Positions 16,598-21,278 of a DNA stretch of 33,346 nt are shown piece after piece (within the stretch, counting starts at the first letter, position 1; each line of letters begins with the position of its first letter). The notes below the pieces were generated by a model that saw nothing but the letters and a program-made list of their open reading frames with translations, was not told the DNA's origin and made no database searches. The position numbers and the translations under genes were made by a program. Source of the DNA: an uncultured archaeon (GTDB taxonomy: Archaea; Thermoplasmatota; Penumbrarchaeia; JASLWR01); the NCBI GenBank assembly GCA_964342815.1, contig CAYFHS010000030.1, forward strand, positions 1 through 33,346, written 5' to 3'.

Positions 16598-16812
16598 TTA
16601 ATCCAGGGTAATTTCTTACGTTTAGTTTTCCTCCTTTCCAGCCAGATCCATGGTAAGTTCTTCCTTGCCATTTTCCTATTTGGCAGCCATATCCTCGGTA
16701 GGTTCTTCCTTCTCGTCTTCAACCGTACCGGCCTCGTCAAGGGTTGGTTCTTCTTTCCCGTTTTCGTCCTTACCATCCTTATCCTTGGTAGGTTCATCCT
16801 TCTTCGGAAGGA
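16598..16812 (-). repeat. Degenerate coding repeat (K/D)EEPTxD, five copies, the last two lying beyond the archaeosortase stop codon
   Basis: In-frame translation: KDEPTKD..KEEPTLD..KEEPTED.AAK*ENGKEELTMD.AGKEEN*T*EITLD*. Confidence 0.7.
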
Positions 16813-17698
16813 CCAGTTCACCTTTGATTATCTTACCCTTATCCCTTTTGTGAAGGTCGAACAACGTAAACAGATTATCAAGAGCCTCCGGGAGAAGCTT
16901 GAACGTATAGATCACGATTCCTATAAGAACGAGAAATGAAAAACCCTTTCCCACCCAATTATGTGCGAAATCGAAGGCTTTATCTGTGATACCCAGAGTG
17001 ATATTACGTTCAGTCAAAAATATTATAGCAATATTACGGAACTGGTTGGCTACGTATATCACCGGGACTGTGATCAAAAATCCGTAGAACTTTCTTCTGG
17101 CATCCGCCTTTAAGAAGATATTGAAAACAGCGAAGAGGATCATTGCCTGAATGCCCGTGCAGGCGAGGATTATGGCGATACCACTACCGTTAAGAGGAAC
17201 ACTTGGACCAACATCAGCTTTGTAAATGATAGTTCCCAGATCAATTGGTACACCTTTCGGTTCATATCCCATCCAGTTCATAATCTTCATGGTCTGCCAT
17301 GCAGTGACATATACGATATATCCTCCCACAATCTGGACCCGCTCGATCATGAGATATAGAAAAGCGGTCAGTGCCGTCCCCTTAGCAGCCCAGTGCATAG
17401 CCGTGAGATATTCATGCCGCTTATGGTTAATGTACTCGTGATAGGCGAGATATCCGAAAACACCGATCCCCATCACCGTAAATATAGCATTGGTTGGATT
17501 TTTCTCCCAGGTGAGATATAGGACCGACCAGAATCCCCAGTACAGAGCATAAACCACATAACCGCACATCACGAGACCGTGCCGGATTCGGGGCCTGAAA
17601 AGATATCCGAGACCCATGCTCACAAGCCCTGCAAAAAGCCCAGCGTCCAATAGCCCTAGAAACGTAGAATACTGCAATTTATCGTTCCATCCATTCAT
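16676..17698 (-). CDS. artA: Archaeosortase A-like membrane transpeptidase with acidic C-terminal tail
   Basis: Multi-TM protein with IILACTGIQ (Cys), NQFRN (Arg) and AHN motifs of the exo/archaeosortase family. Confidence 0.88.
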   Translation of the reverse strand: MNGWNDKLQYSTFLGLLDAGLFAGLVSMGLGYLFRPRIRHGLVMCGYVVYALYWGFWSVLYLTWEKNPTNAIFTVMGIGVFGYLAYHEYINHKRHEYLTAMHWAAKGTALTAFLYLMIERVQIVGGYIVYVTAWQTMKIMNWMGYEPKGVPIDLGTIIYKADVGPSVPLNGSGIAIILACTGIQAMILFAVFNIFLKADARRKFYGFLITVPVIYVANQFRNIAIIFLTERNITLGITDKAFDFAHNWVGKGFSFLVLIGIVIYTFKLLPEALDNLFTLFDLHKRDKGKIIKGELVLPKKDEPTKDKDGKDENGKEEPTLDEAGTVEDEKEEPTEDMAAK

Positions 17699-17876: not shown

Positions 17877-18551
17877 TCATACCAGGCTCTCACCTAACAA
17901 TCTTTCTTCCTCCGCCCTCTGCCGCTCCATTATACTTTTAATCTTCTTTCTGCGGAAGAAATCTTCCCGCTCCCTCTCCTGAAGTCTCATTTCGATGTAC
18001 TTTTGGGTGGCCTTCAAGCGCGGTAGAAAAATATATTCGAGAGCGTTCACCCTGCGCTTTGTCTTTTCGATCTCAACCGCCAGCCTCTCGATGGATCCTT
18101 CGATCTCGGCCAGGTGAAATAGGTTTCCCATCACCTTGTTGAAATCATCAACAGCCTCATCCATGTATGCATTTGTATCAATAAGCGAATAATTTATCCC
18201 AAATCGATCCCCCGGGTTCCAGGCGAGTTTCGGTACCTTTACGCCCATGATATTAAGATGATTCAAGTTGATCCCCTCGAGAGGAGGGATCCCTTTCAAT
18301 GCCTCATTGAGGGAGTTCTCTCCCATTGTCATTTTCACTTTGGAAAGGGAAAGATACGAATCGGCTAGATCGGCGTTAACACTACGCCGTACCTTTGCTC
18401 TTTCCTTTATGATCTTCAAGAATTCCACCACGAGGGCGTCCCTTTTCTCACCCAGGAGTTTATGACCCTTTTCGGCCAACGCGGTCTTTTTCCTGAGCTT
18501 TAAGAGTTCCATTCGCGTGGGTTTTATGTTCTCCATAACCTCCGACGCCAT
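17877..18551 (-). CDS. atpD: A/V-type ATP synthase subunit D
   Basis: PTRMELLKL, GHKLL..KRDAL, MGVKVP, EIEKTKRRVNALE, LQEREREDFFRRK. Confidence 0.96.
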   Translation of the reverse strand: MASEVMENIKPTRMELLKLRKKTALAEKGHKLLGEKRDALVVEFLKIIKERAKVRRSVNADLADSYLSLSKVKMTMGENSLNEALKGIPPLEGINLNHLNIMGVKVPKLAWNPGDRFGINYSLIDTNAYMDEAVDDFNKVMGNLFHLAEIEGSIERLAVEIEKTKRRVNALEYIFLPRLKATQKYIEMRLQEREREDFFRRKKIKSIMERQRAEEERLLGESLV

Positions 18552-18694
18552 GTATGTGGATATGTTTTTTTAAGTATAAAATCGTTGGGTTCAGTTTGGC
18601 GATTTGATAATGCAAATTATTCATCCAGCGGGCGGTATCGGAGGGAAAAGAGTGTGGGATCACAGACCCGATCGAGCAAATCCATAAATCGGCC

Positions 18695-18841
18695 GACATA
18701 TGTCCATAATTACCATTGACAAATGGCTACTAACAACATTAATAAATATTCCTTTCTATCCCAACAAATGTTACCTTCTGCATTAGACAAATGTCCCAGC
18801 ATCTCATCGACAAATGTTCCTTTCACACCTCGACAAATGTC
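18695..18841 (+). repeat. Array of seven 10-bp pseudo-palindromic direct repeats (consensus GACAAATGTY) at 23-bp periodicity
   Basis: Copies at 18695 GACATATGTC, 18718 GACAAATGGC, 18741 AATAAATATT, 18763 AACAAATGTT, 18786 GACAAATGTC, 18809 GACAAATGTT, 18832 GACAAATGTC; spacings 23,23,22,23,23,23. Confidence 0.9.
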
Positions 18842-18896
18842 TTATGTTACAAACATATAGGTCTAATTTTACTTTCACTCACCCCCCCTATTAATC

Positions 18897-18921
18897 TTTA
18901 TATAATGACCAAACATTTGTC
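18897..18921 (+). promoter_or_regulatory. Putative TATA box followed by an inverted copy of the array motif
   Basis: TTTATATA at 18897-18904; AACATTTGTC at 18912-18921 is the reverse complement of GACAAATGTT. Confidence 0.65.
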
Positions 18922-18983
18922 CATTAGTCAGGGGTTTTCCGTTGCCTATGACCCATATGAAAAAGAAAAACGGGGTTGATATC

Positions 18984-19409
18984 ATGAAAGTACGGAAAAG
19001 CAAACAGAAACGAAAGAAATATAGAAGTTTAATAAAAGTCATTGAAGGAAATATTTCCGAAAAAATCCATCAAGATGAAGCAAAAATATTACTACACATC
19101 CTGATATACCATTTCGACGGTTTTACTCGCCAACAGCAAATAATAAACACATACATGTCGTTAAAGTATCACTGGGGCAATAAACGTACTTCGAGAGTTC
19201 TAAAAACACTAGCAGCAATTGACGTAATTGATCGCTGGAAGTCGGAATCCGATAATTGGACCTTGTTTTTCCTGGTCAAAGGTTTCATCGAAGAGTGTAG
19301 AAATAAAATTTATCTAGCCAGCTTCAATATTAAAGAGAGATTAAAACGTTATTATTCGGCAATCCTCGCCATCACCCGTATAAGGAAAATGGCTTTGGAA
19401 CCTGAGTGA
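18984..19409 (+). CDS. Basic hypothetical protein with winged-helix-like pattern
   Basis: ATG 18984 behind GGGGTTGAT (longest ORF starts at 18942). K/R-rich N-terminus, three predicted helices (EAKILLHIL / QQQIINTYMS / NKRTSRVLKTLAAIDVI) and a beta-wing-like segment (DRWK...WTLFFL). Confidence 0.6.
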   Translation: MKVRKSKQKRKKYRSLIKVIEGNISEKIHQDEAKILLHILIYHFDGFTRQQQIINTYMSLKYHWGNKRTSRVLKTLAAIDVIDRWKSESDNWTLFFLVKGFIEECRNKIYLASFNIKERLKRYYSAILAITRIRKMALEPE

Positions 19410-19484
19410 TTCAGGTATACATAATTTCCTTTACGAACGGGAATTAGATCCTTTCGATCTTAAGCTATCATGTTTAGATATCGA

Positions 19485-21278
19485 TTAATAAGGATCAAAC
19501 ACTACGATCTGGGTGGATTTTTCGTCGCTGTCAAACCAGTATAGCATTCCCCTTTTCGCGTCAATGAACTTGTAGGCGATTACGTCATTCCCAGCGCCCA
19601 CTATCTCATAAAGTACTTTATCAGAGCCGAGGCTGAGATTTAAATTATCATCCGCGCTGATCTGAACAGTCTTATTCGCACCGCCGCTGAGGTTTATCAC
19701 TTCATCCATAAACGACCCCACAATGATTCCATTGTCAAAAGCTCCTTCGAATCCCTCGTTGAAACGTATCTCTATAAGTGTCTGGTTTGTCTTGTTAAAA
19801 AGGAAATCAATTTTTCCATCCGTATAATATGCGATCCAGATGGTATTGTTTTCTTCCACCCGATATATCGGAGGACCATAAAGGTCAATTACTTTGTCCA
19901 TACCGTCTCCGATCATAACATAGTTCAACCCGATTCCTTCCTTAATATTAACGCTTGTATACGGTTGGAATACTACAATCTGGGTAACTGTTTTATTTAT
20001 ATCGAACCAATAAAGAATACCTTCGGGAGCATTGATAAACATATATGCGGTTGTTTTATTATCGGGGTCGATCTGTTCATAAAGAACCCGATCCACACCA
20101 TAAACCAAATTTTCACGACCATGTAAACTCACTTTCACGGTCTTCTCCGCATCCCCGTTTGCATTAATGATACTGGTTAAAGACGAACCGATCGAGAGTT
20201 GATTTATTGTCCCAAAATCAAAACCTTCGTTAAACCTGACCTCAAGCACTTCTTTTGTAACGTTATCTATGAGAAAATCAATTCCAGCAAGTTCATGATA
20301 AACCATCCAGATCGTGTCATTGGTCAGTACCTTTTCTTCTGGTTCACCCAACCAACCGAGTATCTTGCTCTCCATATCGCCCGAATGCATTTCACCGAGC
20401 CATTTCGAGGCAATATCATATTTCACCGGATAAGGGTTGAAGACCACTATCTGGGTTACATTTTCATCCGGACCAAACCAGAAAAGTATTCCCTTTTCAG
20501 CATGGATGAACTTTGAAAACGAAATCAAACCGTTTGCACCTATCTGTTGATATAACACTTTATCGCTACCGAATATATACTTATCCGATCCATCGCGGTT
20601 GGTTTTCAAGATTTTGTTTGCCCCTCCATAAGCATCAAGAACGGAATTCAGGTCGGTACCAATGGTTATCCCTGATTCTAAGTTGCCCTTAAAACCGGTA
20701 TTGAAGCGTATCTCGGTTATCTTCCCCGTTTGTTTAGATAAAAGAAAATCAATACCGTTCTTCTCGTGGTATTTCACCCAGATGAATGTATCGGTTTCGC
20801 TGCTGCTTTCGGGATCTCCGAAAACCTCTACGATCTTGGATAGCTCATCCCCGATCTGGATCTCATCGAGACCTTTGCCCTCAATAATTATCTTTTTCGC
20901 ATCCTCTTTTTTCTCCTCGTCCCCACCGAAGTAGACGAAACCAACGATTATTAGGGATGCTACTATACCTATGGCGATAAAAGTGAATATCACCCGTTTT
21001 ACCGAGGATTTTCCTTTAGCTCGTTTGGATATTTTCTCATCGGATAATTGTCTCATATATTCCTTGGAGATCTCTTCCGGCTCACCAAATTCCTCTATTA
21101 TTTTCTTGATCTCGCTCGATGATAATTCACCCTCATCGGAGCCTCGAGCCTGGTCAATCTTTTCAAACAGATGTCCTTCGATCTCCTGGACTATGGATTT
21201 TTTCTGCTTTCTATCAATCTGGGCAAGCTCATTTTCAATTTTTTTCAAATAGGATTGAATCTCTGGTTGCAATTTCAT
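19485..21278 (-). CDS. HAAS (DUF1700-like) membrane protein with three ~156-aa extracellular repeats
   Basis: N-terminal YLKKIENEL...EIEGHL...FGEPEEIS (HAAS), one TM, then three repeats each ending TQIVVF.PY; TAATG overlap with padR. Confidence 0.85.
   Translation of the reverse strand: MKLQPEIQSYLKKIENELAQIDRKQKKSIVQEIEGHLFEKIDQARGSDEGELSSSEIKKIIEEFGEPEEISKEYMRQLSDEKISKRAKGKSSVKRVIFTFIAIGIVASLIIVGFVYFGGDEEKKEDAKKIIIEGKGLDEIQIGDELSKIVEVFGDPESSSETDTFIWVKYHEKNGIDFLLSKQTGKITEIRFNTGFKGNLESGITIGTDLNSVLDAYGGANKILKTNRDGSDKYIFGSDKVLYQQIGANGLISFSKFIHAEKGILFWFGPDENVTQIVVFNPYPVKYDIASKWLGEMHSGDMESKILGWLGEPEEKVLTNDTIWMVYHELAGIDFLIDNVTKEVLEVRFNEGFDFGTINQLSIGSSLTSIINANGDAEKTVKVSLHGRENLVYGVDRVLYEQIDPDNKTTAYMFINAPEGILYWFDINKTVTQIVVFQPYTSVNIKEGIGLNYVMIGDGMDKVIDLYGPPIYRVEENNTIWIAYYTDGKIDFLFNKTNQTLIEIRFNEGFEGAFDNGIIVGSFMDEVINLSGGANKTVQISADDNLNLSLGSDKVLYEIVGAGNDVIAYKFIDAKRGMLYWFDSDEKSTQIVVFDPY

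Follow-up and report, generated by a model that had tools for sequence, protein, structure and literature searches.

Iteron plasmids encode autoregulated Rep proteins, among them pPS10 RepA, R6K pi and P1 RepA. In the ParR-parC system of plasmid R1, phased short direct repeats lying around or before the promoter are bound cooperatively by the repressor that is encoded downstream. Repressors of the MarR/SarA type act at promoter-overlapping (pseudo)palindromic operators and are frequently autoregulated, and in archaea the classical position of a repressor, as in MDR1, LrpA and Phr, is between the TATA box and the transcription start. In the Lrs14 family of the Sulfolobales, the proteins are small, basic and of the winged-helix type; their elements follow the order H0-H1-(S0)-H2-H3-S1-S2-H4, and the last helix is long and bears a conserved cysteine (PMC11841832). 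Four to nine Lrs14 homologues are present per genome, they bind cooperatively to their own promoters and are connected with the stress response, and their binding to DNA lacks sequence specificity (PMC11841832).

The locus described here lies on contig C30 of an uncultured archaeon of the Thermoplasmatota (G000), the assembly of which consists of 4.35 Mb in 116 contigs with 45% GC and is 89% complete with 3% contamination. The whole stretch of DNA that was analysed, 33,346 nucleotides in length, is called the window. In it, an array of seven phased direct repeats precedes the gene for a 141-aa protein, and we regard the locus as probably an autorepressed winged-helix protein gene with a cooperative upstream binding platform, a reading that is drawn from the sequence.

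The locus resembles the iteron plasmids in that direct repeats about two helical turns apart lie beside the gene of a winged-helix protein, and in that an inverted copy lies in the promoter, as in autorepression. It differs in that there are ten chromosomal copies and additional orphan arrays with no replicon context, a single winged-helix domain with a long helix in place of two winged-helix domains, no match to a Rep family, no identified unwinding element or initiator boxes, and a period of 23 bp instead of 22. With ParR-parC it shares a phased direct-repeat array preceding the promoter of a small protein's gene; however, no partner NTPase is present, the protein is of the winged-helix and not the ribbon-helix-helix type, the period is 23 and not 11 bp, and the module is multi-copy and chromosomal. 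The likeness to Lrs14 consists of the element order, the small size and basic character, the presence of several paralogues (10 here) and a conserved Cys in the last helix, whereas Lrs14 has no phased site arrays and belongs to the Sulfolobales rather than the Thermoplasmatota. Membership of the Lrs14 family would also imply an antiparallel coiled-coil dimer formed through the last helix, the structural model of the present protein being that of a monomer.

The phased array

The array (18695-18841, forward strand) contains seven direct cores with the consensus G/A-ACAAATGT-Y-C and a period of 23 bp. The cores start at 18695 (GACATATGTC), 18718 (GACAAATGGC), 18741 (AATAAATATT), 18763 (AACAAATGTT), 18786 and 18832 (both GACAAATGTC), and 18809 (GACAAATGTT), the one at 18741 being degenerate with three mismatches. 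Direct reading of the region 18300-19500 gave core-to-core spacings of 23, 23, 22, 23, 23 and 23 bp and six spacers of 12-13 nt each. The preliminary description had reported seven GACAAATGTY-type cores at these positions and spacings, and the re-reading reproduced them, together with the exact sequences of the six spacers. The window contains 8 occurrences of the word ACAAATGT, where 1.31 would be expected, and a count of 8 was reached in 0 of 100 shuffles; four of the eight matches are in phase within the array and one is inverted at 18913-18920. A chance origin of the array is excluded. Tandem Repeats Finder, run on the window, did not report the array at 18695-18841, as is expected when conservation is confined to the cores. 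A second sample of that study yielded a DNA contig that covers 18493-18859 with zero differences.

The conserved unit, taken from 65 distinct units at 15 of the 19 loci examined in three genomes, was G/A-A-C-A-A-A-T-G-T-Y-C. In the same 65 units, the information content was 1.15-1.85 bits at core positions 0-8 and mostly less than 0.5 bits in the spacer, which upholds the earlier view of conserved cores with diverged spacers. On the top strand the spacers are strongly G-poor: among the 65 units, the number of G per spacer position has a median of about 7 (range 1-17). In all arrays, the spacers and the C-tract are C-rich and G-poor on the sense strand of the gene (here 18695-18890), and this bias may reflect the avoidance of stray half-sites.

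Several side observations were made on the repeats of this region. Words similar to ATCACC and CACCTC occur in many spacers and are reminiscent of the 16S rRNA 3' end. GAACAAATGTTC looks like the LexA (Cheo) box of Gram-positive bacteria; this was taken as a coincidence, and the protein has no LexA-like domain. Unrelated to the 23-bp family, a tandem repeat of 30-31 bp occupies 1-211 at the start of the contig (6.9 copies, 89% identity). At 16625-16802, four copies of a repeat with a 45-bp period (66% matches) overlap the archaeosortase A gene (16676-17698, minus strand) at its 3' end.

Promoter, operator and leader of the winged-helix gene

Downstream of the array, a promoter element common to replication and repair genes, termed box A (18867-18888, forward strand; TTTTACTTTCACTCACCCCCCC), is followed by the TATA box of the winged-helix gene (18897-18905, forward strand; TTTATATAA). 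An inverted core, GGACAAATGTTT on the minus strand (18911-18922), follows the TATA box ahead of the expected transcript start and constitutes a putative auto-operator. A conserved hairpin is present in the 5' UTR (18927-18952, forward strand), with the stem GTCAKGGG/CCYATGAC; according to the alifold consensus, 17 loci retain this stem, in part with compensatory changes. The hairpin loop UUUCCGUU is complementary to AACGGGG at 18969-18975, beside the ribosome-binding site, so that two alternative pairings are possible in the region 18927-18980; this suggests that the leader hairpin may serve as a translational control element.

The order of array, box A (TTTTACTTTCACTCACCCCCC), TATA box, inverted core, 5' UTR hairpin and ATG was common to all ten paralogues of the genome, the arrays of which hold 2-13 cores. 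Their promoters carry box A (TTTTACTTTCACTC, then a C-tract) in one copy or in two copies 43 bp apart with GCCAGTAC between them, and their leaders proceed from the inverted core GRACATTTGTCC through the hairpin GTCATGGG ... CCCATGAC and AACGGGATTGAT to the ATG. The inverted core pattern was found in 15 of the 19 family loci, at 67-72 nt from the ATG in 14 of these 15, and the distance from the TATA box to the inverted core was 14-16 bp in every locus with a detected TATA-like hexamer (11 of the 15). The proximal box A precedes the operator by 41-49 bp in most loci. The last core and the operator are separated by a variable distance (80-140 bp, and 80 bp for the array at 18695-18841), which approximates 6 x 23 bp in no loci other than the five that have box A twice. 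Metatranscriptome contigs, from two runs of low depth, were all located over atpD (17947-18293), none of them reaching the array or the gene, and at this depth they have no bearing on whether these are transcribed.

Box A in replication and repair genes

The genome contains 32 copies of the exact 11-mer of box A, TTACTTTCACT, where about 2 would be expected, and outside the family the 11-mer sits 10-15 bp upstream of the TATA box. In G000, box A (TTTACTTTCACYSACCCCCC) was found upstream of the genes for MCM (L012), RadA (L016), a RadB-like protein (L017), an OB-fold Ssb-like protein (L011), UvrB (L018), the ExoVII large subunit (L020) and a tyrosine recombinase (L013), as well as several unnamed genes, and it marks a putative replication and repair regulon. 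The MCM promoter and the promoter at 18867 are nearly identical across about 40 nt, and one DNA contig runs from box A of this locus into the MCM leader. Box A is also present in genomes that do not carry the family (two copies in G002, three in G007 and one in each of six other genomes; 0-1 in controls), which indicates that the element predates the family and that some other factor reads it. A search of the literature for the box A word or for a promoter motif of archaeal replication and repair genes returned nothing relevant.

The same promoter with two box A copies, GCCAGTAC and C-tract was also observed at a gene for a 359-aa protein without a Pfam family (G000:C5:122925-124135, L010); this promoter has no core motif, and one core is found downstream of the gene, about 600 bp away.

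The 141-aa winged-helix protein

The gene at 18984-19409 (forward strand) encodes a 141-aa protein with a predicted winged helix and a long C-terminal helix, and its family has no Pfam or NCBIfam model. No family match was obtained in Pfam or NCBIfam (E<=0.01) or in PHROG, and the approximately 50 homologues are all without a name. Even an exhaustive profile search for the family yielded just a handful of clusters at 50% identity.

The AF2 model, built from 59 sequences, had a pLDDT of 92.9 and a pTM of 0.74. It consists of helices 2-23, 27-42, 51-62, 66-78 and 102-138 and strands 82-86 and 94-98, giving the order H-H-(b)-H-H-E-E-H, in which helices 51-62 and 66-78 are followed by the wing strands 82-86/94-98, as in a winged helix. 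The best match in VIA was the PerR DNA-binding domain (Z 10.9, rmsd 2.0, 84 residues), followed by the extended winged helix of TFE (9.8), MecI (9.5) and MarR-type proteins (8.6-9.3); 100 chains had Z>=8, and among the 50 matches listed nearly all were winged-helix domains. The top Foldseek matches were SarA, OhrR and MarR (E from 4e-4, probability about 1), and the top 50 were nearly all MarR/SarA chains with E of 4e-4 to 8e-3, with TM-scores of just 0.35-0.48. An earlier AF2 model from 28 sequences, which was replaced by the present one, had a pLDDT of 79 with the wing built as a helix, gave no Foldseek match at E<=0.001 and had a best VIA Z of 8.1 (Fur). On the basis of the final model, a winged-helix fold can be assigned to the protein with confidence.

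The protein may resemble MarR/SarA proteins (OhrR 1z91, MarR 3bpv, SarA 9ilk), its best Foldseek matches, in that the winged helix of the model lies between N- and C-terminal helices. Unlike them, it has no match to Pfam MarR or MarR_2 (E<=0.01), its TM-scores with them are low, its palindrome is just 10-12 bp long and its sites form multi-site 23-bp arrays. An hmmsearch with profile A1 against all PDB sequences (E<=10) returned two unrelated chains, the match to MgrA having just E=1, and no sequence homology to Lrs14 (e.g. 6CMV, Sto12a) was found in such a search at the same threshold. No Lrs14, Sso10a or TrmBL2 chain was among the matches listed by Foldseek and VIA, which is not evidence of absence. 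The preliminary description had named Sulfolobus AspA as an analogue; the protein is indeed a predicted winged helix, but no AspA match was found. Look-alikes in the ESM Atlas were generic wHTH and MarR-like clusters (0.92-0.94, fewer than 170 shared features) and serve as leads only. The idea of an Orc-derived domain was dropped, as the distant profile matches (E 1e-8 to 1e-4) were not Orc1/Cdc6 proteins; they are proteins that consist of a bare winged helix, or ATPases of the STAND/AAA_22 type matched in their C-terminal winged helix.

Residues W64, G65, N66, K67, R68 and T69 at the start of the recognition helix, residues of the wing, and C105 in the last helix are invariant across 28 homologues, and the invariance of the recognition helix at its start is in keeping with a core that does not differ among the three species. 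The protein probably forms a dimer; a homodimer prediction with two protein copies scored 0.00, which has no bearing either way.

Paralogues, other arrays and co-occurrence

A genome-wide search for the phased motif revealed at least 14 arrays with a 23-bp period in G000, ten of which precede paralogues of the 141-aa ORF, so that the present array is not unique. ACAAATGT was clustered at the 23-bp period in ten or more places, and a genome-wide chaining test detected 16 phased chains against 0 in the shuffled genome. The spacing in the chains was 23 bp in 83 cases, 24 bp in three and 22 bp in one, and 45-46 bp at skipped units. Some arrays have near-identical spacers, for example those of 12-18 units on C1, C9 and C14, and these look like recent expansions; in others, the present one included, conservation is confined to the cores.

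A tblastn search with the 141-aa ORF identified nine more copies in G000 with 50-70% identity. Phased cores were found upstream of all ten paralogues of this genome and at 12 or more of the 19 family loci across three species, the remaining loci having scattered cores only or truncated upstream DNA; similar arrays at homologous genes had been one of the proposed checks. Nine of these loci, from two other Thermoplasmatota species (L001-L009), all have box A, TATA box, inverted core and hairpin, and about half of them have phased cores. One paralogue, on C9 (G000:C9:54315-54822), is a pseudogene with one internal TGA and one internal TAA codon that keeps its array, two box A copies, TATA box and operator.

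Among 37 species-level genomes of the class, family copies were found in G000 (10 and the pseudogene), G001 (8) and G003 (2) and in no others. The phased pattern ACAAATGT-N14-16-ACAAATGT was detected in the same three genomes (44, 22 and 13 matches; 0-1 for the reversed control). Both the family and the pattern are absent from the other 34 of the 37, including G002, which belongs to the same family of species. Since the three carriers are close kin, this co-occurrence amounts to about one evolutionary event and does not count as 37 separate trials. In the family tree, seven of the eight G001 copies fall into two clades of their own, indicating lineage-specific expansions.

The strict 11-mer occurs 91 times in G000 against 9 in the control; 58 of these are in arrays and about ten in family operators, and the rest are near background. 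The system thus appears to target mainly itself, and no wider single-site regulon was seen in the genome-wide count. Some arrays stand without a family gene, box A or operator at their side: at least four in G000 and several in the other two species. The four in G000 (C9:73624-74069; C14:34057-34432; C14:55766-56288, which runs into an assembly gap; and C30:47752-47898) range from 7 to more than 20 units in size, and their spacers are nearly identical; that at C30:47752-47898 retains a decayed operator and a hairpin-like remnant and may therefore be the relic of a lost module. These orphan arrays mean that gene regulation in cis cannot be the full account and that arrays also exist as targets in trans.

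The ten loci have no neighbouring genes in common, and the upstream gene varies in identity and direction. The family gene is monocistronic, and in 8 of the 10 loci the next gene downstream is convergent, which suggests that the module stands alone.

The cassette and its neighbours

The whole cassette of array, promoter and gene (18602-19477, forward strand) spans 876 bp and is bounded by breaks in homology with the congeneric genome G003. The flanks 18313-18601 and 19478-19574 align with G003 at 89% and 82%, respectively, and the slot between them in G003 contains 920 unrelated bases with a 195-aa ORF (G003:C84:14091-15070, L051). The atpD genes of the two genomes are 96% identical, and the HAAS-domain gene has the same relative position, so this intergenic position appears to swap cassettes between close relatives. 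With a GC content of 34-39%, the cassette is AT-richer than its flanks (45-48%). It has neither terminal repeats, inverted or direct, nor a target duplication, nor flanks shared with other copies.

The local neighbours are atpD, artA, a gene for a HAAS-domain membrane protein, and PadR. Among the neighbours examined, no Rep, Orc/Cdc6, ParA, ParM, integrase or cas gene was present, in agreement with the earlier statement that no cdc6, parA or cas gene is adjacent. The window contains no tRNA, no Rfam match was obtained at the locus, and no relatives of the family were found on viral contigs.

Discussion

From the anatomy of the locus we infer binding, its stoichiometry, the direction of regulation and the role of the array as follows. 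The array would be the upstream binding platform of a self-contained regulatory module that is present in about ten copies in a marine Thermoplasmatota genome. The product, a winged-helix protein with an N-terminal helix and a C-terminal helix of about 37 residues and probably a dimer, would recognise the 11-bp pseudo-palindromic core. When bound to the inverted core between the TATA box and the start, it would block the recruitment of the polymerase, resulting in negative autoregulation. The seven same-sense cores, 80-220 bp upstream of the operator, would take up further copies of the protein cooperatively, and the array may act as a high-avidity sink or as a nucleation centre that sets the amount of protein needed before the promoter is shut down. 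The promoter would be driven through box A, the older element common to MCM, RadA, UvrB, ExoVII and the OB-fold Ssb-like gene, and for this reason the module should be expressed together with the genes of replication and repair. The preliminary description had also proposed a cooperative platform for the neighbouring winged-helix protein, and this part of its interpretation is borne out, as far as sequence can tell, by the phased cores at every paralogue of this genome and at 12 or more of the 19 family loci, the exact co-occurrence of motif and family in the 37 genomes and the inverted core in the promoter.

The main rival to this reading, kept in place by the orphan arrays, is an architectural one, which we consider possible but unlikely: the ten paralogues would be sequence-specific nucleoid-associated proteins, similar to Lrs14, that act on arrays across the chromosome by forming filaments or bridges, perhaps in replication or repair, and the promoter copy would provide dose feedback only. 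In its favour are the orphan arrays, which lack an adjoining gene and reach about 20 homogeneous units, the failure to see a wider single-site regulon, and the promoter element shared with MCM, RadA and UvrB. The element order of the model also equals that described for Lrs14, with many paralogues and an invariant Cys in the last helix (PMC11841832). On the other hand, there is no sequence similarity to solved Lrs14 chains, the DNA binding of Lrs14 is without sequence specificity (PMC11841832), and the placement of arrays along the chromosome is not readable in an assembly of 116 contigs. A more specific form of this idea, which we hold to be rather improbable, is that the ten paralogues and about 90 phased cores make up a chromosome-architecture system switched on together with MCM, RadA and UvrB. 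The helical rod of the dimer would span two adjacent cores, so that the protein itself would set the 23-bp (about 78 A) period, and rigid filaments or trans bridges would result, for example holding sister or homologous chromosomes during replication or recombinational repair. It is likewise doubtful that the 876-bp cassette is a selfish or mobile unit, the array of which serves copying or recombination and not regulation. The atpD-HAAS slot of the congeneric genome lacks the cassette and holds a different 920-bp insert, copy numbers of 10, 2, 8 and 0 are found across four species of the family, the G001 copies form clades of their own, and the cassette has a lower GC content than its flanks. 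However, the cassette has no terminal inverted or direct repeats, no flank sequence in common among copies and no linked transposase or integrase, viral contigs hold no relatives, and the paralogues are just 50-70% identical, so that no recent movement is visible.

The remaining proposals of the preliminary description each fail a defining feature and are not supported. The iteron-plasmid-like anatomy of direct repeats and inverted promoter copy suggested a cryptic integrated replicon, with the locus as its iteron-type origin of replication or its partition centromere. This is very improbable in view of the 14 or more arrays and the ten old, diverged paralogues, which lie in ordinary chromosomal settings among housekeeping genes and have no neighbours in common. 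The locus lacks an adjoining Rep-family initiator and viral or PHROG relatives, no Orc/Cdc6 or integrase gene is nearby, and the NTPase partner expected of a partition site, whether ParA, ParM or TubZ, is not encoded in the same operon. We attach hardly any probability to the proposals that short repeat-spacer RNAs are processed from a transcript of the array or that the array is an operator for the divergent atpD-artA genes, despite the strongly G-poor top strand of the spacers and a distance of 143 bp between the atpD start and the first core. The sole recognisable promoter is located downstream of the array, the cores of the array are 10-11 nt long, against about 23-50 nt for the repeats of CRISPR or similar RNA arrays, which have unique spacers and a leader promoter, its 12-13-nt spacers are too short for the known guide systems, near-identical spacers occur in several arrays, and neither an Rfam match nor a cas gene is present. 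As for atpD, its TATA region is conserved in G003, G001 and G002, where no array is present, which argues against an action of the array on atpD-artA, and among the ten loci the upstream gene differs in identity and direction.

Accepting the autorepressed module as the probable reading, the locus would be a clean natural case of a DNA-binding family that is packaged with its own phased array and operator, and it illustrates that an 'iteron-like' anatomy on a chromosome need not imply a replicon. In the literature on chromosomal iteron-like winged-helix modules, nothing relevant was found except the Lrs14 review (PMC11841832). As judged from the genomes compared, the module is known only from one small group of marine archaea, in which the family has expanded to about ten copies per genome. 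The locus provides a testable protein-motif pair for an unannotated family and, through box A, a first view of a promoter box of replication and repair genes in these archaea. The family may represent a sequence-specific counterpart to the non-specific chromatin proteins of the Lrs14 type.
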